A stretch of DNA of 64,000 nucleotides from Naegleria gruberi (taxonomy: Eukaryota). Where the stretch lies: the NCBI GenBank assembly GCA_000004985.1, contig GG738846.1; one strand, 5' to 3'. A program made the position numbers and the translations under genes. Below are positions 3,382-61,100 of this stretch, one piece after another. Numbering within the stretch: position 1 is the first letter of the stretch; the number at the start of each line of letters is the position of its first letter. The notes beneath the pieces were generated by a model, which did no database searches, was not told the origin of the DNA, and worked only from the letters and a program-made list of their open reading frames with translations.

Positions 3382-6300
3382 ATGTTTGAAGGAATTGCTT
3401 CGAGCATTATTGTTAAACTCCTCGGAGATTATATTGAAAATTTAGATAGTAAATCTCTTAAAATTGCTGTATGGAGCGGAAGTGTTAATCTAACCAATCT
3501 AACGTTGAAAGCTTCGGCTTTGGATACATTTGATTTACCAATTTCTGTCGTACAAGGATGTGTTGGTAGTATTGATGCATCGATTCCTTGGCAATCCCTT
3601 TCTAGCAGTCCTGTGATTGCCAAAGTGAGTGATGTCTTTCTGGTTGTTCAACCAAAAAAGTGTGATAAGGTATGTATTATTTGCAATTAGGATTCTAATT
3701 ACTTGTTCGATTTATATAAATATATATTTAATAATGTAATTATTGAAAATAATTTGGAAAATATATTTGGATTTACAAATTTAACGTTTGTTTGGATTAA
3801 TTTCTTCTATCATCAACAAACTGAAAATGTTAATTTTCCAAATTTATTTTACTTCTTCTTTGGATTAATACCCTATAATCTATTATTATCAACTATGCAA
3901 TATTATTATTTGTTAATATTAATCTTACTCACTTGATAGTATGATGAACAATCGGAGAAGGCTAGAGCATTATTGGCCAAACAAAGAAGTCTTCAAAACC
4001 ATGAATTGTGGAAGGAACAACAAGAGGCTGTGGATGACATCAAACAAGATAAAAAGACAGACGATAAACAAGGGGATACTTTTGTTTCTAGAATGACCGA
4101 AACTATATTGAATAATCTTCAAGTGGAAATTTCCAATGTACACATTCGTTATGAGGATGGTTCCAATCCAAAGAATCGTATAGTTTTTGGTATTACCATG
4201 GAAAAACTGTCCTTGAAGAGTTGTAATGAAAATTGGGAGGAAGTTTTTATCAAGACTGTCCAAGCAGCTTTCTACAAGAAAATGTTACTTCAAAATTTAT
4301 CGTTCTATATGAACAATAATGAAATTGAACTCTTTTCAAAATCTGGAATGGATACTAAGAAATTCTCTCTCCATATGAAAAAGATTATCACTGAAAACAA
4401 GTTCTACAGAAGATTTATTGTAAGTCCAATTAATGGAGAAGCCAAACTTGTCATGCAAAAGGAAGGAAATATCGATATGAGCAAACCTACAATGGTGGCC
4501 AATTTGGAATTAGACAATGTAAATTTATGCCTCGATGACAGACAATATAAGAATCTACTCTCAACTCTTGAATATATGAGTAACTACTCACGATTTGAAA
4601 GATTTAGACATTTGAGACCAAAGACAGATTACAAATCGGAAGAAAAGGGATTATGGTGGGAATATTTAATCAATTCTGCAAAGGATATTGTAGAGAAACA
4701 TCACTTTACTTGGCAACAAATTGAGGAACGTAAAAAGCAAAGAAAGGAATATATTGAACTCTTCAAGAGAAGTAAGGAATATCCATGGCAAAAAAAGCTT
4801 TCTGATTCGGAGAAAAAAACTCTCCATTCACTGGAAGACAAGATTGATTTTGAGGATATTATCTTTTACAGGGAGCTGGCCTATGAAGAATTAAAAATTG
4901 AAAAGCAAAAGAATAAGGCATTCCTTACAAAGAACGAAAAATCCTCTGGATGGTTTGGTGGTTGGTGGGGAAGTAAACCCTCAACTGCTACTCAGGAATC
5001 GTCTTCTGGAGAAGAATCACCAACTGCTTTTGAATTTACAGAAGAGCAACGTGAAGAGTTACACAAGACAATTGGTTACAATGCCAAGGAAAAGGCTCAA
5101 TCCATAGAGCTACCAGCAGATTATGTATCCTATCAAATTAATTTTTACCTAAAGCAAGGAGAACTTAAACTTAGAAATGCCAGAGTGAAGAGTAGTGATC
5201 CAGATTCAGCCATTGTTAAAGGTGCCTTTAATAACTTTAGAACCGAGGTTGGTGTTAGAGCTCAGGGATCTGTCATTGTACGAGTGACATTGGATGATTT
5301 TGAAATTACAGATCATTTCTCTGATGTGACACAATTCAAAAAGATTCTCTCAAGAAGAAAGCAAGTTGGCCATTTGGCAGAAATTATTGTGGAAAATAAG
5401 CCTCTAGATGGTGAATCAGATTTGAAGGTGCAAATATTGCTTCAACAAGTTGACATTGCACTCAATGTTCCTCTAGCTCAAAAAATTCTCTCCTTCTTTA
5501 TCATTCCATCAAATTTGGACTTTTCTGCACTTCAAAACCTTGCTAAAAAGCAATTTGAAAGTTTACAACAACAAGCTCTCACACAATTGAAGGTTGCTTT
5601 GGAATCTAAAATGTTAATTGCTTTGGATGTGTTAATTTTGGCTCCAACATTTATTATTCCTATCGACTATAAGGATGAAAACTCTAAAATAGTATTACTC
5701 GACTTGGGTAAATTGAAATTCAAGAGTGATATTGATAAGAAAGAAAGAGAAAGGAGAATTAAGAATGAAACTGTAGAAGAAAAAGATTTTTATGATAGAT
5801 TCGACCTTGAACTTTCAAATATCCAAGCAGTCATTACAGATGTTCCAAGCTATAACAAACAAACAACGACAAATTCATTCCAACTTATCGAAAAGGTTAA
5901 TATATTTACCAAGTTGGGTATTCTCATTACAAACGATACCAACTATGCTGGAACTAAAATTGAAGGAACCATTCCTTCTATTAAGGTTAACCTTTCTCCT
6001 CTAGCTATGAATACCATTGTTAATGTAGCCAACAACTTCCTTGTTCTAGTGGATAATCCAACTGGTAACAGTAAGGAAGATGTTGAAATCAAGGGTGCAC
6101 TCAAGATCAAATCAGACCTTTTGACAAATGGTGAATTTAAACCATATTGGACTGAAGTGACAGAAAATGGTAAAATCATGCTCTACACCACAGAAAATGA
6201 TATGAAACCTTCAGGATGTATTTATATCGATGATAGATCCATTGAATATCAATTATCTGACAAAAATCCAGATTTAACAGAGAACCAACTGGCTATTGTA

Positions 6301-26777: not shown

Positions 26778-28646
26778 ATGACTCAACGAGAGGATGAATT
26801 AAACATGTCCATTCATAATGGAGAAGATGAAGAAGAGAATGTTCTTCGAAAAACTTCAGAAGGAACAGATGCAAGTTCCGAAACAATGTTTCATCCGATT
26901 TCCTGTAATAAATGTAGAACGAATCATAAAAAAGTAGGTTGACTTTGTGTTGTTTGTTGTTATTAGAAATCCATTAGTGTGATAAAAAGTTACCAATGTG
27001 CTCGTATTGTGCCAGTAGAGGAATTGCTTGTGAAGTAAGTTTTTTTTAACTTTACAATAATTGTAAACCTTTTTAAAGTATGATAATCCTAGAAAGAGAG
27101 GAAAAGGCTCGGATCAGTATCCTCCAGAACCAAAAAAGAGAAAGATTAAAATTCAACCAGAATGGAAGGAAATTGGACTTTTGGATCCAAATTTACTTGT
27201 GGAATTTTATTATGACTACCTGTCGGATGGTTTAGCAGTTTTACCAAAACACAAATTTACTTATTTTGTAACGAATTGTTTGAATCAATTTATGAGAGTT
27301 TCTACGGAACCTCTTACATTGGAAACTAATGATTTAATCAAGTCAGAGGAGGAAATGAGAGGATTATATATAATGTATTCAGCCCTTCTGACTGTGTATT
27401 ATCAATTTCATGCCAAAACGGAATTGGCTACCCTCACTGCAAGTATATGTGAAAAGGAAATTACAAAACATTCCATAGAATGTTTTGAAAACTTGTATTT
27501 TGTTGCAGGTTGTCATACTATAGCTCTGTTTTTTCTCATTGAGGGTAGTCAAGAGAAAAAGGGAAAGTTTTTTGGACACTACGTAACTTATTTCTTCAAA
27601 ATGAAAGACAATATAGATGATATGGATGCTTTTGAGAAGAATTTTTATCATTCCTATTTGCTAATTAAGCACGTATGTGAACACGAACCTCCAAAAGATT
27701 TCAAGTCATTTATTAGTGGATTGCCACAGTTCTTCCAAGTACTGTCGGGAAGAAATATTGAGGATGTTGTAATACCAGAAGTTTGGGAATATTTGAAGAG
27801 TGCAGAACCTAATTCAGCAAATTACATGATTTTCAAACAATTATTGGAAAATGTCTTTCTTTTTGCGGATCAACATAAGAAACATATGATGACAAGTAAC
27901 TTGAGCAATGATTCAATTTCAAAGAATTATTTGGAATTTGAAAGTTTGATTAGGAATATTATTCATGATGGATTCAGATTGCTATTCTATGGAAAAATTC
28001 CTGAATTGGCTGGTGAACTCATTGAAGAAGTTGCTTTGAGAATTACTCTCCAAACTGAAAATGATTTATTCAAGTATGTTTTTGATTTTGATTTTGATTT
28101 TTACTAATATTTTCTTTTATTTGTTAAAATATATATAGACTTGCACTTCCAGCTGTAGATATTGGAATAAGAAAAGCATGTGAATTCCACTTGAAAGTTT
28201 CACAGGAAGTTGAGATGGGTCTACGTGACAGGAGATCTAGAATCAAAACCTCCTCAGGAAAGACAATCTCATTCGATAATTATTCACTTTTGGAAAAGGA
28301 TTTAAAGGCCATTAAATTATTGGCAAGTAGATTCAAATCAATTTACAATATTGATAAGGAACTCATTGCTAAATGTGAAGAATTTCTGAAAAGACAGGAG
28401 GAAAAGCAACAAACACAACCTTCCATAACCATGTTACCTCCTATTGATACTAATTTATTGAGACCTCCAGTACATATTGAATGGAATCATCATAATCAAG
28501 ATTCATTCTTGTCATCAATGATGGATTTTGTCAAACTAATGACACAAAATAACAATGGAAATATGTCATCACCCTCACCATCCAACTCTTCATTTGGTAG
28601 TGCAAGCAGCAGCGCTCCTTATGATCCTTGGAGTTTATTCCAATAA
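26778..28646 (+). CDS. Zn(II)2Cys6 binuclear-cluster (GAL4-type) transcription factor. Exons 26778..26933, 26978..27034, 27079..28073 and 28139..28646; introns of 44, 44 and 65 nt; 571 aa.
   Basis: The spliced N-terminus ...ISCNKCRTNHKK|CDKKLPMCSYCASRGIACE|YDNPRKRGKGSDQYPPEPKKRKIK gives C-x2-C-x6-C-x5-C-x2-C-x6-C followed by a basic linker. Donors are GTAGGT, GTAAGT and GTATGT, and every acceptor is AG. The CDS is 1716 nt, divisible by 3. Confidence 0.7.
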
Positions 28647-44436: not shown

Positions 44437-46147
44437 ATGAAGAGATTTATTCTTGCACTCTTGTGCTTGGTTGCTATTGCTGCAATGGCAAGAGCTGAAT
44501 TGTTCCATGATGAAGATGCTCAACCTGCTCTCAACATTGATATTATCAAGAAGGTCAGAAGATCTGGTGCTCAATGGCAATCTGGTGTCAATAAGAAGTT
44601 TGTCGGCAAAACTGTTGGTGATGTTAAGAAAATGTTGGGTTTGAAGGTTTGTATTATTATTTTCTCTTGTTTTAATTATAATATTTTTATGTGTGATGCA
44701 ACGATAATTGTATATAAACTGTGACTGTCATTATTTTGGCACACATATGCTGATGATGAATATAACATTGTTCAAAATAATACATACTATGATAATTCAA
44801 CATGATGATGAAAATGATGTGATATTCTCTCACACTTTGGAATATACTTTGGAATATTATATGATGATGTTGATGATTTTATTGAATAATAGGGTATTAA
44901 ACCAACTATTAGATACTCTGATGATGAAAGAAAGTTGATTGAACAATACTATTTGGCTAATGGTGCTGCTTCTTCCTTGCCAGAAAGTTTCGATTCTAGA
45001 GAAAAGTGGCCAACTTGTATTCATCCAATTAGAAATCAAGAACAATGTGGTTCTTGTTGGGCTTGTAAGTTGTTTTAATTGTGTTATTTTGAATTTTAAC
45101 TGTGAAAATTAGTTTCTGTAAGTTTTGTTAATTAACAAATAAGAAACTTATTTATTCAGTCATCTGAAGTCTTGTCTGATAGATTCTGTATTGCTTCTGG
45201 TGGTAAGGTTAATGTTGTCTTGTCTCCTCAAGATTTGGTCAGTTGCAACTGGTATAACGCTGGGTATGTTTAATTTGTTGTTATATATTTATTCGAAATG
45301 TTGATGTTGTGATGGAATAGTTGTGATGGTGGTATTTTGTGGGCTGCTTGGATTTACTTGAAACATACTGGTATTGTTACTGATCAATGCCTTCCATATT
45401 CATCTGGAAATGGTGTCGCACCATCCTGTCCAAAGTAGTAAGTTTATTATAATCATCATATTCATCTTAAAATCTTTTCAAAGTTGCAATGGTACTAGTA
45501 CTCCAATTGACTCTGTCAAGTACAAGGCAAAGGACTGGTATGAAGTTGGTAGTATTGCTGGTTTCTTCATTAAGGTAAGTGCTATTTAATTACATCAGCA
45601 CACAACTAACAATATAATTCTAACAATTTTATTTATACTTTTCAATAATTTATTTAATAACAGGAAGAAAAGATCATGAATGAAATTGCCACTAATGGTC
45701 CTGTTCAATCTGGATTCAGTGTTTATCAGTAAGTAGAGAATGTTTAATTTTTTCCTCAGCTTTCATGTATATTCTGATTGAAATATTATAGAGATTTCAT
45801 GAGTTACAAGTCAGGTGTTTACACTCATCAAACTGGTTCTTTCCTTGGTGGTCACGCAATCAAGATTGTTGGTTGGGGTGTTGAAAATAATGTCAAGTAT
45901 TGGTTGGTTGCCAACTCTTGGGGTCCTGTAAGTTTTATTTTCTTTAAACATATTACTGGAATAATATATTAAATTATAATAATCAAATTAATCTACTACA
46001 GGATTGGGGTTTGAACGGTTTATTCAAAATCAAGAGAGGTGATAATGAGTGCGGAATTGAGGCTGATGTGTAAGTTTTTTAAAATTACTCAATAATTCTT
46101 ATAACATGAATTTATTGTATAGATATACTGGATTGGCTGATGTTTAA
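44437..46147 (+). CDS. ctsB: Cathepsin B-like papain-family cysteine protease, 10 exons: 44437..44646, 44893..45064, 45113..45117, 45160..45263, 45321..45437, 45484..45574, 45664..45728, 45792..45927, 46002..46069 and 46123..46147; 330 aa.
   Basis: Signal peptide [18 protein letters not shown], a propeptide, the catalytic Cys in QCGSCWAF, His in [11 protein letters not shown] and NSWG. An occluding-loop region (PSCPKYCNGTSTP) is present, and the C-terminus aligns with CGIESEIVAG. All junctions are GT-AG (mostly GTAAGT) and phase-consistent. The CDS is 993 nt. Confidence 0.8.
45113..45117 (+). other. Putative 5-nt micro-exon (TTTCT) of the cathepsin B gene, flanked by introns 45065..45112 (48 nt) and 45118..45159 (42 nt)
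   Basis: Exon 2 ends in phase 1 after a consensus GTAAGT donor. The only downstream AG that restores the [15 protein letters not shown] frame leaves a gap. Including 45113..45117 (acceptor AATTAG, donor GTAAGT) yields [17 protein letters not shown], the same length as cathepsin B CGSCWAFGAVEAISDRI. Confidence 0.45.
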
Positions 46148-46754: not shown

Positions 46755-49700
46755 ATGAACAGGACGGTTAATATTGTTCTCCTTTCCATAGTTTCCGTTC
46801 TAGCCTTATTCTTCCTTTCTGGAGGTGTAAGTGCTGGTTCTGGTATTTACGAAGCAGCATGTAACACTACTGCTGACTGTGTTTCCACATTAGCTTGTGA
46901 TACTAATACATCCCTCTGTATTTGCGATACTGGTTTGGTTAGATATAATGATTCTCTCTGTGTTCCAGCCTGTACTTCTGATGCCAACTGTACTAATGGT
47001 GGTGTCTGTGATTTAACTTCTGGTACTTGTAATTGTACTGCCAATTATGATGGACCAACTTGTACTGATTCTCTAATTGTTCAAGGTAACAATAGTTCTG
47101 ATAGTAGTAACAATGCTACTGACCCATCAAGTCCTTCTGCTAATAATACTGACTCGTCTAATAGTACAGATCCATCAACTCCAAGTGGTAATAACAGTAC
47201 TAACAATGAAACTAATCCATCAACTCCAGGTGGTAATAACAATACTAGTAATGGTACAACTGATCCAACTAATCCATCTTCCAATAATACCGATCCATCA
47301 ACTCCAGGTGGTAACAATAGCACTAACAATGGTACAACTGATCCATCAACTCCAGGTGGTAATAACAGTACTGGTAATAATACCAATCCATCAACTCCAG
47401 GTGGTAATAACAATACTAGTAATGGTACAACTGATCCAACAAATCCAACCAGTAACAACACTAATCCATCTTCCAACAATACCGATCCATCAACTCCAGG
47501 TGGTAATAACAGTACTGGCAATAATACAGATCCATCAACTCCAGGTGGTAATAACAATACTAGTAATGGTACAGCTGATCCAACAAATCCAACCAGTAAC
47601 AACACTAATCCATCAACTCCAGGTGGTAACAATAGCACTAACAATGGTACAACTGATCCAACAAATCCAACAAGTAACAACACTAATCCATCTTCCAATA
47701 ATACTAATCCATCAACTCCAGGTGGTAATAACAGTACTGGTAATAATACCGATCCATCGACTCCAGGTGGTAATAACAATACTAGTAATGGTACAGCTGA
47801 TCCAACAAATCCATCTTCCAATAATACTAATCCATCAACTCCAGGTGGTAATAACAGTACTGGCAATAATACCGATCCATCGACTCCAGGTGGCAACAAT
47901 AGCACTAGCAATGGTACAGTTACTGATAAGTGTACTGATATCAATTGTGTACACGGTTCATGCATTGATGGTGCCTGTCAATGTGAAACTGGTTATACAG
48001 GTTCTCTCTGTGATCAAGCTATTACATCTAACAATACTGATAAGTGTGCTGATATCAATTGTGTCCACGGTTCATGCAGTGAAGGTGTCTGTCAATGTGA
48101 AACTGGTTATACAGGTTCTCTCTGTGATCAAGCTGTTACATCTAACAATACTGATAAGTGTGCTGATATCAATTGTGTCCACGGTTCATGCATTGATGGT
48201 GTCTGTCAATGTGAAACTGGTTATACTGGTTCTCTCTGTGATCAAGCTGTTACATCTAACAATACTGATAAGTGTGCTGATATTAATTGTGTACACGGTT
48301 CATGCATTGATGGTGTCTGTCAATGTGAAACTGGTTATACTGGTACTCTCTGTGATCAAGCTGTTGATCCATGTACCAACATTAAGTGTGGCAGCCATGG
48401 TTCCTGCTCAAAGGGTGTCTGTGTTTGTACTGACGGATACACTGGTTCGAACTGTGAAACTGCTCCAATTACTTGTAATGGTAAGAGTGAAGCTGAAGGT
48501 GGCTGTTCATTCCATGGTACATGTAGCGCCACTGATAAGTGTATTTGTAATGGTAACTTTGACTCTGCCTCTTTCTGTTCAAAGTGTAAGACTGGTTATA
48601 CAGGTTCTGACTGTTCTATTCCAGTTTGTTTCAATGTTCCTTCTACTTCTAGCAGTGTTTGTTCTGGAAAGGGGTCTTGCACAGCTCCTGATTCTTGTGT
48701 ATGTGCTTCTGGTTACTCTGGAAAGACGTGTTCTTCCTTCTCTTGTTGGGGTATTGATAAGTCCAACAGCACTGTATGTGGTGGTAGCTCTAAGGGTACT
48801 TGTGTTGGTCCAAATAAGTGTTCTTGTGTTTCCAACTGGAACAATCTTGAAAATACCTGTGTATCCTGCAGTCCTGCATACACTGGTGAGACTTGTACTC
48901 AAGCTACTTGTTCTGCCAATACAACTTGTAGTTCCCATGGTTCATGCGATGAAAAATTCAAGTGTGTCTGTTCTGGAAACTGGGATGGTGAATTCTGTAA
49001 TGTTTGTAAGGCTGGTTTTGTAGGTGATAACTGTGATATTGCTTGTTCTGCCTCTACTTGTAATGGTAATGGTGTTTGTACCAAGACTGGAGCTTGTTTA
49101 TGTGTTGGTCACTATGATTCTGCCCAAAAGTGTGCTGCTGGTAAATGTGCTGATGGTTTCCAAGGTAGCGCTTGTGACTATAAGGTAGACAGTTCCTCTT
49201 TCGCTTTTAACCAATTTGGTGATAGAATTATTGCCACTGTTTACACTAGTATGAAGAAATCTGTTAACTGTTCTCAAGTTTTCACATCAGTTGCTACCCT
49301 TGGTGCCGGTGTTCAATGTAACATGGACGGTGTCAGTAAGCTCGAAGTTGTTTTGGGGGCTGGTGCTACTGTAAAGCTTGGTGATTCATTGCAAGTTTAT
49401 ACACTCCTTGGTGATGTTTCTAATACTGTTTCCGTAACTGTTAAGGTTGGTAGCTTTGTTGCTGTCGCACCAACTGCTTATTTGACAACCGATAAGGCTG
49501 TTGTTTCCACTTGTGATACTGTCACTTTGAATGCATTTGACTCTGTTTCTACTGATCGTCGTCCATTGAACTTTGCTTGGACTTGCACTGCTGCTCCAAC
49601 TGCTGATGCCCAGACTACATTGAATAATGCTCTCAAGGTTACCTCAAGTGGTGTTAGACTTAACTTGGTTTCTCTTGGTCTTGTTGCTGGTACTTACACT

Positions 49701-52049
49701 GTTCAAGTCACTGTTACTTCATCATTCAGTGCCTCATCATCATCAAAGAGTGTCTCATTCACTGTAACTGCTAGTCCTGCCCCAGGTCTTTCTATTAAGG
49801 AAGGTTCAGTTGTTGAATATTTGATTGGTACTACTAGCATTATCACTCCAGTAATTTCCTTCCCAACATGTTACACGGGTAATGGTTCTGTTGCTTATTC
49901 ATTCGCTTATATCAACTCTATTGCCACTCCAACCATTGTAACTAAGGATAACATGGTTGTTATTGCAAAGACTAGTACTGCCATCTCTACTGTCGGTGAC
50001 TATTACATTGTTGTTACTGCTGCTGCTAATGGAGCTTCTGAAGTTTCCACTACTGTTAGAATTAAGGCTGTTGCAAAGCCATTAACTGTTACATTCAGTG
50101 TTCCAGATATGACCCAATCTAAGGATGATGCTGTTGACTTCACTGTCAATATTGTTGATCCAAGCGATACTACTGGTACTTTGGCCATTACAAGCACTTG
50201 TGTTGATGCTGATGGTAACACATGTGTGGCCCCAGCTGCTACTGAATCTGCCTCATTCTCAAAGTCCTTACCTGCTGGTAAATATACATTCACTACAACA
50301 GGTACAAAGGATATCAGAACTACAACTGCCAAGTTGACTATCACTGTTGTTGATACTGCAAAAGATAAGATTATTAGAGTTTCCATCACATCCAATACTG
50401 ATTTGTCCACTGTTGATCCAACCAAGGACTTGTACTTGACTTATAACACTTTGGATGCCTTGTCTACATCCGCCAAATTTACCTGGACATGTGACTCTGG
50501 TGACAGCAGTACTTCCTCTCTTTTGACAGTTTCAAAGGCTAACATGGTTCCTGGTGCTACCTACACTGCTTCGTTGAATATTGTAGATGGTGTCAAGTCT
50601 GGTTCTGCTATTGTTTCATTCACTGTTAATGCTCCACCAACAAAGGGTATCTTTGAAGCTTATCCACTTTCTGGTGCTGCTTTGAGCGATTCTTTCGATC
50701 TCAAGTGTGGTAATGGTTGGTCTGATCCACAATCTCCATTGAAATTCCAATTCTTATACTTGGATGCTGCATCTAACAATTGGGTTTCACTCACCGAAAA
50801 GACTGAACAACAAAGCACAAAGGTTCAACTTCCTTCACCATCTTCTGGTGACTCTTTGAAGGTTAAGGCTATTGTTTTTGATGCATTGGGTGCTTCAACT
50901 GAATCCGAGCAACTTTCTATCTCAATTACCAAGCCAAGTACTGCTGATGCCACTAAAGCTTTGAGTGGTTTGGCAGAATCAAAGGGCACTATAACCTTGT
51001 CAGCTGCTTCCTCTGCCATGTCTGTCATTGGTACTGTTGATTTGACAACAGCTACTGCTGAACAAAAGACTCAAATTGCTACCGCTGCCGCCGCTATTGC
51101 TGATGCTTTCATTTCTCAACAAACCAAGACTGAAGCTGTTACCTCAGTTTCTGCTGCCTCTGCTGAAAATAGCTTGTCATTCACAGCCTCCCTTGCTAGC
51201 TCAGTTTCTAAGGGTCTCGTTAGTGATGCTACTACTTCAAAGGTTGTTAGCAATTTGGCTTCCACTACTACAAAGGTTGTTTCTGCATCTTCTGTCAGTC
51301 TCTCTGATTCAGTTCTCGATTCTACCAAGAAAACTGCTGACAACTTCTATGGTTACATTTCTGGTAAGGTTTCTGCTAGAGTTCCACCAGTTTCTTCTTT
51401 GAGAGCTTTCAGTAAGGTCGATCTTGACAATTTGAACAGTGTTTACTCTAGTGTTGCTTCTTTGAAGACTAAGGATGCCGTTCCTGATGCTCCAGCTGCA
51501 ACCGTCACCTCAAACGGATTGACCACAGTTTCTCGTAAGGTCAATCTTGCTACTTTGGCCTCTGAATCTCAAGTTGTTTCTGGTAAGAATAAGATCACCT
51601 TCAAGAGTGCCATTGCTGCTAACTCTGCTTTGGCTAGTTTGAAGTCTGTCACTTATGCTGTAAAGACCACCACTTCCACTGTTACATCTGCTGCCTCAAA
51701 GTCTATCGATTTCTCCATTTCTAATGGTGCTTCTCCAGTTGCTGTTTCTGATTCTGCTGCTATTGCCGATTTGGTCTTTGAACTTTCTGCCAAGAGATCT
51801 GTTGCTGCTACTACTTACACATGTAACAAGATTACTAATGGAGTTGCTGCTGCTGATTCAACTTGTACTATTGTTGTTGGTACTGATGGTACTGTAACTG
51901 CTAGTGTCAAGAGCACTGGTGTCTATGTTTTAACTGCTTCCACCCCAGTTACTCCTGCTGCCACCAAGAGTGCTAAGGTCAATGCTGCTCCATCAATGGG
52001 CTTCTCTGCTTTGGTTGCCTTGATCGCTGCTGTTGTTGCTGCTTTGTAA
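46755..52049 (+). CDS. GPI-anchored cell-surface glycoprotein: signal peptide, Cys-rich N-terminus, mucin-like PSTPGGNN(S/N)T repeats, about 20 EGF/tenascin-type Cys repeats, a long Ser/Thr/Ala/Val-rich stalk and a C-terminal GPI signal; 1764 aa, single exon.
   Basis: MNRTVNIVLLSIVSVLALFFLSGGVSA. Repeats of TDPSTPGGNNSTNNGT with dense N-glycosylation sequons. Four repeats of CxDINCVHGSCIDGxCQCETGYTGSLC, followed by further CxCxxGYxGxxC units. The C-terminus ...NAAPSMGFSALVALIAAVVAAL has an omega-site-like small residue followed by a hydrophobic tail. Confidence 0.7.
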   Translation: MNRTVNIVLLSIVSVLALFFLSGGVSAGSGIYEAACNTTADCVSTLACDTNTSLCICDTGLVRYNDSLCVPACTSDANCTNGGVCDLTSGTCNCTANYDGPTCTDSLIVQGNNSSDSSNNATDPSSPSANNTDSSNSTDPSTPSGNNSTNNETNPSTPGGNNNTSNGTTDPTNPSSNNTDPSTPGGNNSTNNGTTDPSTPGGNNSTGNNTNPSTPGGNNNTSNGTTDPTNPTSNNTNPSSNNTDPSTPGGNNSTGNNTDPSTPGGNNNTSNGTADPTNPTSNNTNPSTPGGNNSTNNGTTDPTNPTSNNTNPSSNNTNPSTPGGNNSTGNNTDPSTPGGNNNTSNGTADPTNPSSNNTNPSTPGGNNSTGNNTDPSTPGGNNSTSNGTVTDKCTDINCVHGSCIDGACQCETGYTGSLCDQAITSNNTDKCADINCVHGSCSEGVCQCETGYTGSLCDQAVTSNNTDKCADINCVHGSCIDGVCQCETGYTGSLCDQAVTSNNTDKCADINCVHGSCIDGVCQCETGYTGTLCDQAVDPCTNIKCGSHGSCSKGVCVCTDGYTGSNCETAPITCNGKSEAEGGCSFHGTCSATDKCICNGNFDSASFCSKCKTGYTGSDCSIPVCFNVPSTSSSVCSGKGSCTAPDSCVCASGYSGKTCSSFSCWGIDKSNSTVCGGSSKGTCVGPNKCSCVSNWNNLENTCVSCSPAYTGETCTQATCSANTTCSSHGSCDEKFKCVCSGNWDGEFCNVCKAGFVGDNCDIACSASTCNGNGVCTKTGACLCVGHYDSAQKCAAGKCADGFQGSACDYKVDSSSFAFNQFGDRIIATVYTSMKKSVNCSQVFTSVATLGAGVQCNMDGVSKLEVVLGAGATVKLGDSLQVYTLLGDVSNTVSVTVKVGSFVAVAPTAYLTTDKAVVSTCDTVTLNAFDSVSTDRRPLNFAWTCTAAPTADAQTTLNNALKVTSSGVRLNLVSLGLVAGTYTVQVTVTSSFSASSSSKSVSFTVTASPAPGLSIKEGSVVEYLIGTTSIITPVISFPTCYTGNGSVAYSFAYINSIATPTIVTKDNMVVIAKTSTAISTVGDYYIVVTAAANGASEVSTTVRIKAVAKPLTVTFSVPDMTQSKDDAVDFTVNIVDPSDTTGTLAITSTCVDADGNTCVAPAATESASFSKSLPAGKYTFTTTGTKDIRTTTAKLTITVVDTAKDKIIRVSITSNTDLSTVDPTKDLYLTYNTLDALSTSAKFTWTCDSGDSSTSSLLTVSKANMVPGATYTASLNIVDGVKSGSAIVSFTVNAPPTKGIFEAYPLSGAALSDSFDLKCGNGWSDPQSPLKFQFLYLDAASNNWVSLTEKTEQQSTKVQLPSPSSGDSLKVKAIVFDALGASTESEQLSISITKPSTADATKALSGLAESKGTITLSAASSAMSVIGTVDLTTATAEQKTQIATAAAAIADAFISQQTKTEAVTSVSAASAENSLSFTASLASSVSKGLVSDATTSKVVSNLASTTTKVVSASSVSLSDSVLDSTKKTADNFYGYISGKVSARVPPVSSLRAFSKVDLDNLNSVYSSVASLKTKDAVPDAPAATVTSNGLTTVSRKVNLATLASESQVVSGKNKITFKSAIAANSALASLKSVTYAVKTTTSTVTSAASKSIDFSISNGASPVAVSDSAAIADLVFELSAKRSVAATTYTCNKITNGVAAADSTCTIVVGTDGTVTASVKSTGVYVLTASTPVTPAATKSAKVNAAPSMGFSALVALIAAVVAAL
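47095..47925 (+). repeat. Imperfect in-frame tandem repeats (48-nt and 30-nt units) encoding the mucin-like domain
   Basis: Recurrent ccatcaactccaggtggtaataacagtactggtaataatac[c/a]gatcc units with synonymous and Ser/Asn variation. They generate the spurious overlapping ORFs 47077..49023 (+) and 47081..47965 (-). Confidence 0.85.
47923..48378 (+). repeat. Four near-identical 114-bp tandem repeats, each encoding one 38-aa EGF-like unit
   Basis: The unit actgataagtgt[a/g]ctgatatcaattgtgt[a/c]cacggttcatgc...tctctgtgatcaagct[a/g]ttacatctaacaat is repeated four times, with only a few substitutions between copies. Confidence 0.85.
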
Positions 52050-52152: not shown

Positions 52153-55100
52153 TTAAATCCAATTTTTCTTTGCATCCCGAGTCCAAATTTGTAGCAATTC
52201 GGTGGATCTGAATATTCTTAACAAGTTTACAAACATGGTTTCTTCCATTGCCAAATCCTTATCCTCTCTTGCCTTGTAAATATCTTGACAATAACATAAA
52301 ATCAAATCTACATTGTCCAAATCTTCAAATGTAATTCTTCCAACAAGATTACTGCTGTATAAACGAACAAACTGAGCTACAGCCAACACAAAAGATGTAT
52401 AGAAGGTAATAATACCAAAACTACTGATGGCAGAAATGACAGAATCAGCTGCTACAATATTAGTACTCTGAATAAAAAAGAAAGGACCTCCAGTTATGCT
52501 CTTCAAATTACCACTCTTTTCCAAGGGATAGAACTTTGTTGGTTGTGTACATGACATGAACCAAGAGACAAATCCTGGTGGATTATGCACAAGTTCAGTC
52601 CTCGACGAGTTGTAAACATTTGTTACAGTGAGAGAACAATTTGGCAAGTATCGACTTTCCATAACTGTGGCAGTAGCAAGCGCCGAGTACTTGTTCATCA
52701 TGTATGGATTGTAAGAGAGTGGAATATCAATGCTCTCTTTCAAATTTTCAGAATTGACTTTGGAAACATTATAATTAATCATTTGAGCCAATTGTTTTCG
52801 TTTCCAAGCATTCAATACAATACTTTGCCGAGTTTCCAATTCCAATTGAGTGGATGGACCACTTCTTTTCACAAGTAAACTCATTGTCAAGTTGAGTGCA
52901 AGTGTCTCATTGGCCAATGCTTCCACCATACTCATTCTACTTGGTGTTGAAATGAGCCAATACCTTTCTGAATATGGAGCAAGTGTAAAGTTTTGAATCC
53001 AAAAAGTAGGATCATAATTAGGGAATAATTTCAATCCATTTCCGTCATAGAAATCAACAAAGGTTTCCAAACTCTTTTCTGGATTAACTTTGAAATATTC
53101 ATTCTGATAGAATGGCTCAAAACCTTCAATTCCAATTGAAAATTGAATACTATTCACAGTGTTATAACTGAGAGCAGGATTGGCAGTTGAATAGAACAAT
53201 AATGGAAAGAAGATAATCATGGCAAAGACAATAAATAGCAAAAGACCACTTGTTGCCTTTGTAGTAAGGAAAATACGATTACCAAATCCTTTACCTTGTA
53301 AAATCTTATACTCCAAGTCGCATTTTCTCTTATAAAGTTGACTATAGACATCTTCCAATTTCAAATATTCATAAAAAGTCAATGTAGTATCAATAAATGT
53401 CCAATCCAACAAGGTCTTCAATTCAAATACGAATGGAATTGCTCTGTAAACTAAATAGACGTATTGAGCAATGTAATAGTAAGACTTGGTAAAGAATTGA
53501 GTATATCTTCTCTTTGGATAGCCAGTTCTGATTTGTAAACATCCCAAAAAGAGATAAACACACTTGATAAAGAATAAAATCTTGAGGAGTACCAAACCAA
53601 TAGTATTCTGATTTCTGGAAACTTCAACAAAGAAGGCAATGTAAACAATATGATAAATTAATACAACTAAAAAGTGGAATATCAACTTGCCAGTTGCAGT
53701 GGCAAACAAGTACAATACACGTTCAATACAAATTTCAATAAAGAATAGGAAGAGAATAATGACAAATGTTCCAGAGAGCTCATTAGATTTGATTGCTCCC
53801 AATGTTTCATCGGCAGCTCTACCACTCATACTAGAGAAACTAAAGAAGAAAAAGACAAATGCCAAAATTTCAACTGCAACAGTTACAACATAATAATCTA
53901 TACCAAGTTTGAATTGATCATTTGTTAAACCCTTAAAATGATTAATAAACTTGGATAGTCCTCTTCTGAAAATATTTGGCTTTTCACTGTTATCCTTTTT
54001 ACCTTTCTTATCTTCTTCTTGTTGAACATTGAATTTGACAGTCTTTTTGGACTCTTTCTTCTCCTCATTGTTTGTTGCATTGGATGGTCGAGGTGTTGCA
54101 GTCATGATATCATTGGTTACTAGCTCGACAGATGTTGCTGTGTTGGCTCTATTTCTTCCAGTAGTAGTAGTAGTATTGGTGAGAATTTGTGAATTGGATG
54201 GTAAAATCATTTGATCATCTCTTGGTTCAATGGTAGCATTTGTGGTTGTAATAATTGGATTATCTTGTTGTGTAGTGTTATTTTCTTGTTGATTGGCAGA
54301 GGCAAGTGCAGCTGCAGATAATCTCTTCTTTCTCGAATTGGTCTTCCATTCTCCACGATTTCTAGTAATTTCACGATGGAAAAAGATTGCAAGCATAATT
54401 AACAAGTACATGACAATATCAGCCAATAGAGCTGTACTTGGTTGCCATCCCAATAAGAAAATTGCTGGATCAGATTCAGTTGATTTGAGATTGTCAGGTA
54501 AACCAGATTGTACTAGATATAAAATATATTGAACACTAATCAATAGTTGAGCCAATATAAGCATGAGTTCCCAAAAGTATCTGTGAGGATATGGATATTG
54601 CATGGCTGCATATGTCAATGAAAAGAACGTAAAGGCCGTATTGAAATAAGTTGGAGCATAGAGTAAATTAACCAACATGGCAAAGTAACAAATGACATCC
54701 GTATTGCTGAAGAATAGTTTGGTAAGGGCTACGAGTAATTGTTTCAATTTCAATACAATTGGAACCCAATTGAATGGTTTCTTTTTCATATCGGGATGAA
54801 CTTTGGATTGTTCAAGTTTGAGTTGTAATAAATCATTCAACTCTTGTGTTGTAAATTCTTTTGATTTGAGATTTGGAATATCAGCTTGATCTTCCTTTTC
54901 CTCCTTTTCTTTTTCATCTTCTGTTAATTTAATTTCATCTTCAGGTTGTTGCTCCAATTCAACAAGTGTTTCAGTAGTGGTGGTAGTTTCATTCTTCTTC
55001 TTCCACTCCTCTTCCTTTTCTTCAATGTATTCATTGATGGCATCTGCAATAATTTCATCCAAATTAACTCTATATTTCTTCTTAATTTCCAATTCATCCA

Positions 55101-58100
55101 TCCAAGCAATTCCAATAAATATTTGAATACGATTAACAATCAAATCAGTTAACATGTAAGCGTAGTGACCAACATTGGCAAATACTACAGCAAGTAAACT
55201 CTTTGCTCTAAATAGGAGAGGTAACTTTGGAGTTGATTCCTCTTTCTTATTTTCTTGAGAACCTTCTTGAGCAATTTCTGGAGCAACTTGTTGAATGACC
55301 TTACTCAATGCCTCATTGACAGAGTCATTTCTAGCATGTTTGGATATAATATTCAATTGTTGTTCCAATTTTGAAGATGGTGCACCTAAAACATCGCCAA
55401 GAGCAACAATTCTATCATGTGGAACAATCTTGGAAAGGATATTCTTCATTACCTTTTGAACCTCCTCTTTAGAAATATTACTTGGAAGGAATTCTTGGTT
55501 TGGATCAGATGGAAGATCCAACTGACCACGCTCGAAATGCACAGGTCTTCTCTTTGCTGAATTATCAACTACTAGAGTGGAGCTCTTGTAATTTTGTAAA
55601 TTCTCCAAAGTTGAAACGACTTCTCTCATCTTTTTCTGGAATTTATGCTCTGCCTTCTTCAAGCACTTTTTCATTAATTGTTCTTCCTTATTCAGGTTAG
55701 AGACAATCTTTTTTCTAATCTTGGCTGATTCCTTATTCTCCAAATCCAATAAATCACTCATTGCAAGTGCTAAAATAGCGCGTTCTCTTTCAATCTTTTC
55801 TGAATTCTTGGCATATGCATTGACTACCTTTTCATATTCTTCTTTGAGCATGTGCTTTCTATTGTAGAAACTTTGGAAATCAGAATCCTTGTTCACTTCA
55901 TGGAAACTTCTGAGTGCTTGTCGGTTGGCATCTCTTCTCTTTTCTGAAAAGAGTCCCTCTGCAAACCTTGATAAAATTTGAGCAGCTCTATAAGCTTGAT
56001 TTCTTCTGTACTTGGTGGCCCGTTCTTGACTTTCTCTGTATAGTAAATTAATGAAATGAATGTAATCCTCACTTTCGAATAATAAAATTTGCAAGTAATA
56101 GAGGCAGACTACAATAATTTCGGTGGTAAAACTTTCAAGGCCTCTTGCTTTAAGACCAAATAGGAGGCAAACATTCTTTACCCAACCACTTGTATCATTT
56201 TCGTTACCCCAATTAATAGGATCTCCCAACAATACAATTGGAATTTGATAAATTGCATCAATTACAAATGTTAAATAATAAAAAATACCAATTCCTCTCC
56301 AGAATGGAACTGTTCTCCAATACAATCTATTAAACAAGTTCAAATAGAATAAACAGAGAATCATTTGACCTAATTTGATAACATTTGAATCGATGGCTGC
56401 ATCAATAAACATGACAATCAAGACTATAAAACAAAAGAATCTATAAACTATCAACTTGATCCAATTCCACAATTTCTTTTGTTGATCTGGTGTTGTAAAG
56501 TCTTTGATTTTTTGAATTTTTCCTGTTTCAATGTTACGTTTGATTAAACTGCTTGTATCCAAGTGGACAATAAGTGCATTATCTAATTTCTGGGTTCTGG
56601 AAAGGAAGGATGAAACAATTTCACCTCTCTCACGTTTTGGAAGTTTTTCAGGTTGAGAAACTTCAATATGTTGCAATCTTGCATACATTCCTTTGAAGAA
56701 TACTCGTGCCTGCAAGGCCATAAAGAACATCATCAAGTAGAGAATGACTACAATGTACGTATTGCTAATTACTCCTCCAGATGTAGAGGTCAAATTGAGA
56801 ATAATATACTTGCTAAATATTGGAATATTCATCATGGCTTCGTAAAATTGCATTGAACGAACTATTTGCAATCTAAAGAAGAAGAGAATTAACATGTTAA
56901 TTTCAACAACCATTACTAAAAAGATCCATCCTCTTCTCAAAATTGTACTATTCTTTCCAGTAAAGAAACAAACACCAAAAACAATCAAATAAATGAATCC
57001 CCACAATGTTTGAATCAATGAAAGTGATCCTAACAATAGAGTAAAGAGAGAAATTTCAAATCCATAATCATCATAAAAGTGATTACAATAATATTTGAAA
57101 GATGAGAATAGCTTTCGTAAAAACTTGATAATCTTTCTCTTGTAGAAGGATTTAAAGTTTTCTTCTTCAGTTAAATCAGTTGGATGATCTTCATCAAAGT
57201 TCATCTTTTCAAATTCCTCTCTACTGATATAGATGGTATTTCTATTTCTCGCCTTGGATTTTCTCTTGTCAGCTGATGATGAAGGTCTCAACTTTTGAGC
57301 AAAACTAGCCATTGGATCATTCTTGCTTTTAACATTAACTTCTGCCTCTATGAATAAACATCCCTCATCATAGAGACCTCTACTCTTCATGGATCTCTCC
57401 CAACGATAGGTAACCTTTTGGAGGAGAGATGCAACAAATACCAATAAACTAGACCACAATACATTTCCAATGTGATGTCCTTCTGTTGATCTAGCATCTT
57501 CAAGTCCAATATAACCCAACCAAGTACAAACACCAGTGGAACGACCAAAATTCTCAACTTGATGTTGAACAATTGCTCCCAATGCACTATCACACAAACC
57601 ATTTGTAAAGAATGGATGTTGATAAATATACTTGATTGTCATGATAAATCCACTGTAGAGAGCTATCAAGAACCAAATCTTACTAGCAATAACAGGTGCA
57701 GGAGCAAATACAAGAACTAAAACCAAATAAATCAGACCAATAATATTTGGATTAAAGTTGGAAGCCAAGAAGAGGAAAATAATCAACAATTTAGGAGTAT
57801 GCATAACACAGAAACGTTTCATGACCAAGAAGCATTCCAATAGGAGTGAATCTATTTGCTCACTGAATATAATTTGTTTCTCAATTTTCACATGAGATGA
57901 TTCTTGAATAGTTTCAACAATTTCGTCCATCAATGATGGTGTATGTTCATGAATGTGTGTTGGACCAGTAGTAGTAGTAGGTGGTTGTTGCTGTGGTTGA
58001 TTTGGAATAGTTTGTTCTTGTTCTTTCTTTCTAATTTCTTCTTGTTCCTGCACTGTCTTGATTCTTTGTCTTCTTCTGCCAATAACAAATTGGAAATATT

Positions 58101-61100
58101 TCAATTGAACAATAGTCAATATGGCAATGATCGTGAAAGGAAGTAAACTGACATTCTTGTATTGGTACTTGTATAGACCAATGCTCTTTGGGGTAAGATA
58201 TCCGTAATATGAAGGAATTTCAATTGACTTGTCCAATTCATGTTCTCTGATAAGTTGCTTTGCTCTTTCAACTTCTGGCAAGATACTTTGAATGTAGGCG
58301 TACAGGGATGGGAATTGATAAGCATACTCTACAACAAATACCAAAGTAGAATAGAAAACAAAGACGTACCACAAGCCAACAAAGAATTGGAATAATCTGT
58401 AACCAGCTTTTGTGGAATTTGAATTGTGAACTGAGAGAACATTTAAACAGAAACATGCCATAACAATCATTAGGAATATGAATCCAATAAATGATGCTTC
58501 TTCTTGAAGGAAAATTACCAAAAAGACTGCAAAATAACTTGCCAAAGTTCCTAAAAAGTTTAACAATTCAGTTTCTAAAAAGATCTTATCCCAAACAAGA
58601 ATTAATTTTTCAAAGAATGTGTGCAAGTATGGATTCTTTTCTTTTGTAAACATATCCCATTGATCAAAACTAGTATTAACATTCACATTACCAACTGTCT
58701 TTACATTTGAAATATGATATTGAATACTGGTCAATGTTAGAATGAAAATGTGCCAAATAAGTCCTTTCCAAAACACTCCAAAACTACTTGTACTAATTTG
58801 ATTTTCAATTGTAATAAATGATGGATTAAAACCTATAATTTCATACGGTAAATCAACAACTTCAGGTGCGTACCACACATTGAAGAAGTACAAGGCAAGA
58901 ATAACAAATTGACAATATAGAACTAATAAAATCCATGTTTTTCTTGCAAAGGATGGGAAAATGAAATAGACAGCACAAAATATTACTTGGAAAATGTTAA
59001 ATTCACAGTGTGAAAAAGTAACTTACAATAAATAGCATGAAGTAAATCAGCATTTTCAGATGTCAAATCGGCAAAGTAGCAAACAATCAAACTCAAATAG
59101 AAACTGTTTCTCACAAAGAGAATGAGCAATACTTTCCAAATATAGTCAAAGAGTATAATCTTAATAGTTTGTAAAATCAACTTGATCTTAACCCAAACTC
59201 TTTTAGATGTATTTTGTGGTTCACACTCAACCTCTCCCAAATTATTGTCTGCTTCATCATTGATTTTATCCAATTCAGTCATGTCAACATTAGTTGGGTC
59301 TCTAATAGAATCTGAGAATACTGAATCATGAATAGATTGATCACCCATTGCAGGAGACATTATAACATCCAAATCACTATCTTCCTCATTGGTATAATAG
59401 ATGGATCTACGTTTAATATCCATAGAAGTTGATCTGTTACTATTAACAGAATCATTTGGAACAAGGGGAGCTGTATCATCCATTCCATAGTTATTATTGA
59501 TAGAACGTTTGTGGAACCAATATTTTGTAGATTTTAAAAATGCTAAACGTTATTCGAGTATTTGAATAAGAAAACATACCTTTTCGTTGAGAACCAGTCG
59601 AAGCAGCAGCAGTATTACTTGTTGATACTGTTTTTTTATGTCTCTTCAATAGCTTGGATACAGCACTAACTCTTACAGTCAACCCCATAAATAAGGACAA
59701 GATTAATTGACCAAAAATGACTGCAACAAGAACAATAGATCTACCACTATCACTAACATCTGTTAAAAAAGCTCCAACAGTTGTTCCTACAATGGCTCTA
59801 TAGAGAATTCCTTGAAGAGGATAAAACAATACTCCTCCACTTCCAGATGGATTAAATTCTTTTAGTAAAAGTAGTATGTGAAAAATTAAATAAATAATTA
59901 CAATTAAAACATACCATTTGCTGACATTTCTGTGGTTTGTGGAATGTATGATGCAAAATTTGGCATTTGGAAAACATATTGAGCACAAATATAAAGCAAA
60001 CTATAAATGAAACAGAAAGGTAACAGAATTACCATGACCTTATTGGTTTCAAATCTTGGTCCTGGTGATAAAACCATACCAAGATAAAGGAAAAGTAAAT
60101 AGGGAAGTGAACACAAACTTGGAACGGACAAAATGATACAAATCAATGCAATCATCAATGCATAGAGAATGAACTTTTGCAATTGTTCATATAAGAACAT
60201 TCTAAACTTGTAAGATGATTCATAAATGGAATGTACACCACCTGCAATTCCACCCATTGAAGTGTGTTCATCAATTTCTATTAATCTTCTCTCTTCAGAT
60301 TTATAGTACAAATCCTGAAGATATTCCTCAGAGTTTGTATCCAAATCTTCCTTATTAGAAATCATGGTTGGCAAAAGTGTTAAAAACTTTTTAACTTGTC
60401 TTTGTAGTTCTCTTTCTTGTAAAACTTTTGCAATATATTGACAAACAAAGTTACAAGCCAAGATGAATGTAATTAGAACAAATGTGATGAAAACATATCC
60501 AGTGTAGAACTTTTTGAAAAATTCAAATGATTTCAAATTACCATCAATATCAAAAAATCCAGCCATTTTACCATACGGATTTTGTAAAATCATTTTAGAA
60601 AAGTAACCAGTTGAGGAGATTGAATTGGTTTGGAAACGTGTTAAAAAGTAGAAAATGAGCAAGAGTATAGAATAAACTTGTGTAAATATAAATAATCTAA
60701 TGATGAATTGTAATAGTTATGAAAATTATTATAATTATATATTAAATTTAAAATAAACATACCCAATTGAAATAAAAGTCTTCAAGCTACCAAAACTGGC
60801 AAGTGTAATAATTAAAAAACTCAATAATAAATAAGGAATTCCTACAAAACTTGGATAAAAACTTGCAGTAATCATCAAAAAGAGTGCGAATATAATCAAT
60901 TTCAATTCATGAATATTGACATGTTTCTTTTCAGTCTTTTCCTTTGGAGGCATTGATCCAACATGAGTTACTGAAGTTTTCAATTCTTGTACAGAACATG
61001 TCAAGAGCTTTGGATGTTTAGTAAAAACACCAGGTAAATCCCACATGTACATGGTAGCTCCCTTAACTTTAGGAATTGATTCAATTTGTTGTTTCTTCAA

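Follow-up and report, generated by a model that had tools for sequence, protein, structure and literature searches.

The DNA considered here is a 64,000-nt stretch of contig GG738846.1 from the Naegleria gruberi assembly GCA_000004985.1, hereafter the window, with a G+C content of ~33%. On its plus strand, positions 44437–46147 contain a gene for a cathepsin B-like cysteine protease, organized in 10 exons and 9 introns and encoding 330 residues followed by a stop codon. Judged from the genomic sequence and its comparison with relatives, the third exon is very probably a constitutive micro-exon of only five nucleotides, TTTCT, lodged between introns of 48 and 42 nt. Such tiny constitutive exons are in themselves a known phenomenon, and the finding is an annotation correction: the deposited model of this gene takes a different path through the region.

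The spliced product is matched by the Pfam family Peptidase_C1 (PF00112, 1.1e-65) over residues 99–325, and a match to Propeptide_C1 (PF08127, residues 33–70) lies under the Pfam cut-off (22.4 vs 32.7 bits). The best matches in the PDB are all cathepsin B, with values of 9e-64 to 1e-58. The catalytic Gln, Cys, His and Asn are present in the product, and the motifs Q..CGSCWAF, GGHA and NSWG align with those of entries 4i04 and 4i05. The best database matches are Naegleria proteins, and the product is 72% identical to the Naegleria fowleri orthologue, NfCPB. This protein was cloned from a cDNA library as a 1,038-bp open reading frame (ORF) of 345 residues (PMC11614482). One 90% cluster contains both the N. 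fowleri orthologue and AHW50663.1 (‘cathepsin B protein’, 345 aa), and AHW50663.1 is NfCPB. The occluding loop of the N. gruberi product (residues ~189–225) is ~20 residues shorter than that of Schistosoma mansoni cathepsin B1 (SmCB1), and in the alignment it reads ...CPKYCNG... vs ...CEHHTKG... in SmCB1. A His-His pair in the cathepsin B occluding loop confers dipeptidyl-carboxypeptidase activity. As the loop is short and without this pair, ‘cathepsin B-like’ is the best name for the protein; the assignment to the cathepsin B subfamily of papain-like cysteine proteases (MEROPS C1A) rests on overall similarity, exopeptidase activity would not be expected, and the enzyme is probably an endopeptidase only.

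The region of interest lies just behind the catalytic-cysteine motif. Exon 2 (44893–45064, 172 nt) ends ...CAA TGT GGT TCT TGT TGG GCT T, coding the CGSCWA motif of the catalytic Cys125 and the first base of the F128 codon (phase 1). It is followed by intron 2 (45065–45112, 48 nt, GTAAGT...AATTAG), by micro-exon 3 (45113–45117), by intron 3 (45118–45159, 42 nt, GTAAGT...TTATTCAG, phase 0), and by exon 4 (45160–45263, 104 nt), which begins TCA TCT GAA GTC TTG TCT GAT AGA TTC (SSEVLSDRF). The five bases finish F128 (T plus TT) and code S129 (TCT). Within 45107–45123, the letters AATTAG-TTTCT-GTAAGT place a canonical AG before the micro-exon and a canonical GT after it. Accordingly, the predicted messenger RNA reads ...TGG GCT TTT TCT TCA TCT GAA... 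(WAFSSSE), with the junction TGTTGGGCTT-TTTCT-TCATCTGAAGTC and the spanning k-mer TCTTGTTGGGCTTTTTCTTCATCTGAAGTCTTG. The coordinates, bases, intron lengths and flanks that the preliminary description had given for this interval were each found as described when the sequence was re-read.

With the strong splice sites, the reading frame depends on the five bases. With TTTCT kept, the frame is restored, as the preliminary description had stated, and the spliced coding sequence (CDS) is open over 993 nt, or 330 codons plus the stop. Removal of 45065–45159 as a single intron, in contrast, shifts the frame and ends it at ...CGSCWAFI*, the predicted junction being TGTTGGGCTT-TCATCTGAAG and its spanning k-mer TGTTGGGCTTTCATCTGAAGTC. 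The CGSCWAF motif is whole only with the micro-exon included, and the protein so obtained runs without gaps against solved cathepsin B structures through the catalytic helix.

Close relatives carry the same stretch in one piece. In the N. fowleri genome it is uninterrupted and reads tgg gct ttt tct gct tct gaa (AFSASE), and Naegleria lovaniensis has the same reading save for two synonymous third-position differences (gcc, gag). In both species, the bases that follow GCT-T are TTTCT, identical to the micro-exon. Likewise, the stretch is uninterrupted in the environmental Naegleria-like contigs L005, L006/P0121 and L007, which code exactly the predicted peptide and are 80–87% identical in amino acids to N. 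gruberi over the shared part; the closest of these, L007 (87%), reads tgg gct ttc tct tcc tca gaa gtc ttg tct gac aga ttc. The residues coded by the micro-exon, FS, are therefore the same residues in N. fowleri, N. lovaniensis, L005, L006 and L007. The preliminary description had proposed that orthologues be inspected for a gap at this position; there is none, the orthologous genomes carrying equivalent codons without interruption. When the relatives’ peptide was threaded exhaustively on the window, a single canonical GT/GC-AG path was recovered, which is the micro-exon path, and no single intron on the window yields that peptide even when any boundary dinucleotides are allowed.

The spacing of the active-site motif was surveyed in 205 homologues, which supplied 174 CGSCWA...SDR motifs. 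A 7-residue spacer between the A and SDR is present in 173 of the 174, and the micro-exon model matches it exactly; only XP_002682681.1, the public N. gruberi model, departs from it. F occupies residue +1 in 171/174 motifs, and S, A or G residue +2 in 173/174. The conserved spacing invoked in the preliminary description is thus reproduced exactly, with the segment properly written CGSCWAF-x6-SDR (seven residues from A to SDR) and not with x5.

The donor sites point in the same direction. Position weight matrices (PWMs) for donors and acceptors were built from 39 introns of orthologues and paralogues, 46–246 nt in length, in which true donors score 4.0–12.8 bits with a median of 10.2. The donor of intron 2 scores 10.9 bits, which ranks it among the best 0.3% of the window’s GT sites, and that of intron 3 scores 11.9 bits (top 0.12%). 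Counting both strands, the 64-kb window contains the hexamer GTAAGT only 20 times, with 8 of these copies lying in the cathepsin B-like gene, and the arrangement AG-N5-GTAAGT occurs only once, at the 45113–45117 micro-exon. The likelihood of a chance arrangement was estimated from 200,000 dinucleotide-preserving shuffles of the 95-nt interval, counting stop-free, frame-restoring AG...GTAAGT micro-exons with both introns of at least 35 nt. One was found in 311 trials (0.16%), and one of 5 nt in 75 (0.04%); this null is generous, as the dinucleotides of the real GTAAGT sites are retained.

Several observations weigh against the micro-exon. The acceptors of introns 2 and 3 score low, at 0.4 and −1.0 bits, near the bottom of the true range yet inside it, and the acceptor PWM is nearly free of information in this AT-rich genome. 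The 42-nt intron 3 is shorter than all 39 comparison introns (minimum 46). The intron pair 2/3 is not conserved in any relative compared (L001–L009). Searches of a 5.8-billion-protein collection, by similarity and by exact sequence, returned no transcript-derived N. gruberi protein, and a scan of metagenomes for the spliced 27-mer gave 0 matches. Finally, if the exon edges are allowed to move, six canonical, in-frame, stop-free single-intron links exist, all of which break the conserved spacing. The statement in the preliminary description that no single canonical GT-AG intron joins the two exons is thus true only for fixed edges, and one of the six links is the public model. The conservation of the intron pair in orthologous genes had also been put forward as a check; the pair is absent from all relatives examined, which has no bearing on the reality of the exon.

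Branch sites contribute little to the question. YTRAY-like motifs are present (TTAAC at −14 and −25), the one in intron 2 lying 14 nt upstream of its 3' end, and no clear branch-site consensus emerged among the 44 introns searched. Since the acceptor matrix is uninformative and a branch consensus is lacking, the case rests on the donors, the frame and homology. The proposal of a 5-nt micro-exon stands on the sole canonical path to the relatives’ peptide, the spacing found in 173/174 motifs, two top-scoring donors and the cDNA-backed precedent of NfCPB, which is analyzed below.

Four alternative readings of the interval were weighed, and all are improbable. One, which we consider very unlikely, is that the gene is a decaying or non-functional copy in which the 95-nt interval is removed whole or retained and the frame is broken. 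The interval 45065–45159 does have the form of a canonical GT-AG intron, its donor being strong, and redundancy exists, N. gruberi having 35 C01 cathepsins with lineage-specific expansions (PMC8296547). However, the nine other exons are all intact and 72–87% identical to those of orthologues, the catalytic Gln, Cys, His and Asn are all in place, the eight other donors are all strong, and the chance of a perfect frame-restoring micro-exon coding the ancestral residues is ~1e-3 or less.

It is very unlikely that the public model is correct. This model, deposited in GenBank and RefSeq as EFC49937.1 / XP_002682681.1 (‘predicted protein, partial’, 225 aa), threads exactly onto the window, which is accordingly DNA of N. 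gruberi strain NEG-M, and is 100% identical to the 330-residue model except at two junctions. At the first, it removes a single 75-nt intron (45069–45143, plus strand, GTTGTT...AATAAG), which is canonical GT-AG, in frame and stop-free, giving the predicted junction TGTTGGGCTTGTAA-AAACTTATTTATTCAGTCATC, also written GGGCTTGTAA-AAACTTATTT, and the spanning k-mer TGTTGGGCTTGTAAAAACTTATTTATTCAGTCATCTG. The donor of this intron scores −2.4 bits, below all 39 of the 39 true donors, and overlaps a perfect GTAAGT 4 nt upstream. The result is an insertion, CKNLFIQ, that puts five extra residues in the catalytic helix just after Cys125; the 12-residue spacer and the Cys at +1 are unique among the 174 motifs. 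At the second junction, the model is mis-spliced through a 107-nt intron with a weak donor (45561–45667, GTTTCT...AGGAAG), and the residues GFFIKE are lost; a GTAAGT intron at 45575–45663 restores the GFFIKE region, as in the cDNA-derived N. fowleri protein. The public model is also partial, being without exon 1, the beginning of exon 2 and the last exon.

Equally slim is the chance that a single 105-nt intron (45065–45169, with the AG at 45168–45169) is used, whether for the main product or for a minor isoform. Such an intron would leave out the micro-exon together with the opening 10 nt of exon 4, joining CGSCWAF directly to LSDRF through the predicted junction TGTTGGGCTT-TCTTGTCTGATAG (GGGCTT-TCTTGTCTGATAG; spanning k-mer TGTTGGGCTTTCTTGTCTGATAGATTC), with a deletion of five residues. 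It is canonical and in frame, has the 10.9-bit donor and keeps the Phe at +1; its acceptor, CTGAAG (−1.5 bits), is not clearly worse than others, as acceptors carry little information here. Against this, it deletes SSSEV from the catalytic helix and leaves a 2-residue spacer, found in 0 of the 174 motifs, and the skipped TCATCTGAAG codes SSE(V), as in the uninterrupted genes of the relatives. The last reading, a non-canonical GT...TA intron (45065–45154; predicted junction GGGCTT-TTCAGTCATC), has a negligible probability: no other single intron gives the right spacing, and the Phe at +1 is kept, but its TA acceptor compares with AG in 39/39 introns of relatives, it gives Gln at +2 (FQ; 0/174 motifs), and it leaves the internal AG-TTTCT-GTAAGT unexplained.

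Returning to the micro-exon, its processing can be envisaged as follows. Each of the two short introns would be recognized across itself, by intron definition. The upstream AG and the downstream GTAAGT lie 5 nt apart, and two spliceosomes probably could not assemble on them together; with the sites so close, removal of the introns is therefore probably sequential. After excision of the first intron, the micro-exon would become part of a 109- or 177-nt exon. In the protein, TTTCT would supply the last two bases of the F128 codon and the whole of S129; these two residues lie in the central helix, three and four positions beyond Cys125, and the protease would keep the invariant CGSCWAF-x6-SDR catalytic helix. 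Skipping of TTTCT shifts the frame, and its inclusion must therefore be constitutive for a functional enzyme.

The cDNA-backed NfCPB is a precedent within the genus. AHW50663.1 threads onto the N. fowleri genome via one canonical path only, which includes a 5-nt exon, ATTTG (VFQX01000007, L001 positions 3552–3556, gene FDP41_010780), with the donor GTATGT and flanking introns of 64 and 71 nt. The same 5-nt exon is shared by N. lovaniensis, where it is annotated (L009, 1593–1597; introns of 51 and 86 nt). Like TTTCT, the ATTTG exon belongs to the orthologous gene, is 5 nt long, and is arranged as AG, 5 nt and GTA(A/T)GT between short introns; it is constitutive, required for the frame and codes ancestral residues, with its own support in a cDNA-library clone. 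It differs in position, lying at D154/V156, 26 codons downstream of the N. gruberi site at F128/S130; the introns that flank it are non-homologous to the N. gruberi pair, and each species is uninterrupted at the other’s site. Judged by this cDNA-backed example, the Naegleria splicing machinery handles a 5-nt exon.

Other very short exons occur in the same gene family. N. lovaniensis has a 6-nt exon, ATGTCC, (PYSW02000041, L009 positions 2243–2248), between two GTAAGT introns that are absent from N. fowleri. In the N. fowleri paralogue FDP41_011344 (L004), a 7-nt exon, GCAAGTG (1993–1999), is accompanied by exons of 15 nt (2078–2092) and 16 nt (2789–2804). All of these resemble TTTCT in being tiny constitutive coding exons between short canonical introns, and differ from it in being slightly longer and in other positions; they are known from annotation and homology. 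Gene models deviate at such exons repeatedly. The N. fowleri genome model KAF0982801/XP_044567514 replaces ATTTG with a 14-nt exon (3552–3565, donor GTGTAA) that adds CFV, and a third N. fowleri model, CAG4715203, skips the whole ATTTG region. For the FDP41_011344 paralogue, the other public model, CAG4717549, has EFTYNFGDDDD in place of GK. Altogether, four different mis-models are found at micro-exons in three Naegleria genes. No paper linking Naegleria with micro-exons was found in the literature searched.

Constitutive micro-exons have been described in plants, animals and fungi, and include a 1-nt exon reported in Arabidopsis, the 9-nt mini-exon of potato invertase and the 6–7-nt exons of troponin T. 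They keep the reading frame, are usually missed by gene finders and are thought to need an ordered removal of their flanking introns. Transcripts verify these examples, many of which are conserved across great evolutionary distances, whereas the TTTCT exon is lineage-specific and was deduced by comparing genomes. Vertebrate neuronal micro-exons (3–27 nt) are alternative and depend on SRRM4, and the recursive splice sites of Drosophila amount to 0-nt exons with the sequence AG-GTAAGT. In both, as around TTTCT, a strong 5' splice site lies within a few bases of a 3' splice site. However, these elements are regulated, alternative or leave no exon sequence, and sit in long introns, whereas the N. 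gruberi exon keeps its 5 nt, is obligatorily included and is flanked by introns of 42–48 nt.

The remainder of the gene is built as follows. Exon 1 (44437–44646, 210 nt) contains the start codon, the signal peptide and the beginning of the propeptide, and its product aligns with the amino-terminal ends of the orthologues from N. fowleri and the environmental contigs. Intron 1 (44647–44892, 246 nt, GTTTGT...AATAG, phase 0) is at a position unique to N. gruberi among the nine genes compared. Exons 5–10, also on the plus strand, occupy 45321–45437, 45484–45574, 45664–45728, 45792–45927, 46002–46069 and 46123–46147, the last including the stop codon; introns 4–9, between exons 4 and 10, are 57, 46, 89, 63, 74 and 53 nt long. 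The junctions of exons 5–10 are all of the type GTAAGT or GTATGT...AG, and the product aligns with orthologues end to end.

In order, the introns of the gene thus measure 246, 48, 42, 57, 46, 89, 63, 74 and 53 nt. The preliminary description had assigned introns 2 and 3 to the dominant intron size class of this genome, which finds only partial backing here. Seven of the nine introns of the gene are 42–74 nt long, two 44-nt introns are found elsewhere in the window, and the 48-nt intron 2 is inside the observed range; on the other side, the 42-nt intron 3 is the shortest in the compared set, 2–4 nt below the shortest supported introns (44, 44 and 46 nt), and the genome-wide averages for strain NEG-M are 203 bp per intron and 1.7 exons per gene (PMC8296547). 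Against the latter figure, the ten-exon cathepsin B-like gene is unusually intron-rich.

The two 44-nt introns (26934–26977 and 27035–27078, plus strand) belong to a gene at 26886–28100 (+) that resembles Zn(2)-Cys(6) binuclear-cluster (‘fungal-type’) transcription factors. They split its DNA-binding domain, and a match to PF00172 (Zn_clus, 2.5e-8) runs across both junctions. A second micro-exon candidate from the pattern scan, of 14 nt at 27021–27034, is a false positive, its AG lying inside the longer Zn_clus exon. Downstream of the cathepsin B-like gene, 46755–52049 (+) is an intronless ORF of 1764 residues whose product carries a signal peptide and a REJ domain, along with teneurin-type EGF repeats and long Asn/Ser/Thr/Pro-rich repeats; this ORF accounts for a rise in G+C to 0.41–0.42 at 48–52 kb. 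On the opposite strand, 52153–58893 (−) is an uninterrupted ORF of 2246 residues, a homologue of Piezo-type mechanosensitive channels (Piezo_THU9_anchor, 2e-68; Piezo_cap, 1e-62).

The intron positions of the cathepsin B-like gene were compared with those of its orthologues and paralogues (L001–L009). Across the nine genes, 33 distinct intron positions were found. Of the nine positions in N. gruberi, eight are unique, and L007, at 87% identity, shares only one. Even between N. fowleri and N. lovaniensis, which are sister species, several positions differ, and there are many near misses, in which introns lie 1–9 nt apart, for example at Q255 in phase 2 vs D256 in phase 0. Such labile positions suggest rapid intron gain, loss or sliding. 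In metagenomes, a scan with a degenerate 15-base pattern for genes interrupted by an intron exactly where the micro-exon region of N. gruberi is returned 120 loci, none a cathepsin and all random matches.

Two mechanisms for the origin of the pair were considered and set aside. Introns 2 and 3 share 14 of their first 16 bases, which raised a tandem duplication; this origin was rejected, as the six intron pairs that flank micro-exons are no more similar than 100 other within-gene pairs in global 5', global 3' or local alignment. Paired intron gain was likewise discarded: four independent exons of ≤7 nt were observed vs ~1.7 expected under random placement (P ~0.08), and with an excess of tiny exons that is not significant, a special mechanism is unneeded. 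Among the sampled genes, introns 2 and 3 are found in the N. gruberi lineage only; most simply, they reflect two independent gains or retentions. The overall pattern is most simply read as introns turning over fast in genes whose exons have no effective minimum size. A wider proposal, which we regard as tentative and more doubtful than not, is that Naegleria cathepsin B genes are a hotspot of fast intron turnover served by a spliceosome with no practical lower exon limit, in which the gain of introns beside older ones repeatedly leaves 5–7-nt exons as a by-product. This pattern of intron turnover is a more interesting lead than the micro-exon itself.

For the annotation of N. gruberi, the micro-exon reading corrects the reference: XP_002682681.1 is partial, with a spurious 5-residue insertion in the catalytic helix and a 6-residue deletion further on. 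The full 330-residue N. gruberi orthologue of NfCPB, a secreted protease and candidate virulence factor, can now be stated, and the corrected sequence bears on comparisons of the cathepsin repertoires of pathogenic and non-pathogenic species. As the Naegleria machinery handles 5-nt exons, gene finders and RNA-seq aligners should allow for exons of a few bases. If the proposed combination of fast intron turnover and an unconstrained exon size were true genome-wide, Naegleria annotations would systematically overlook micro-exons, and the genus would offer a tractable system for the study of recent intron gain.

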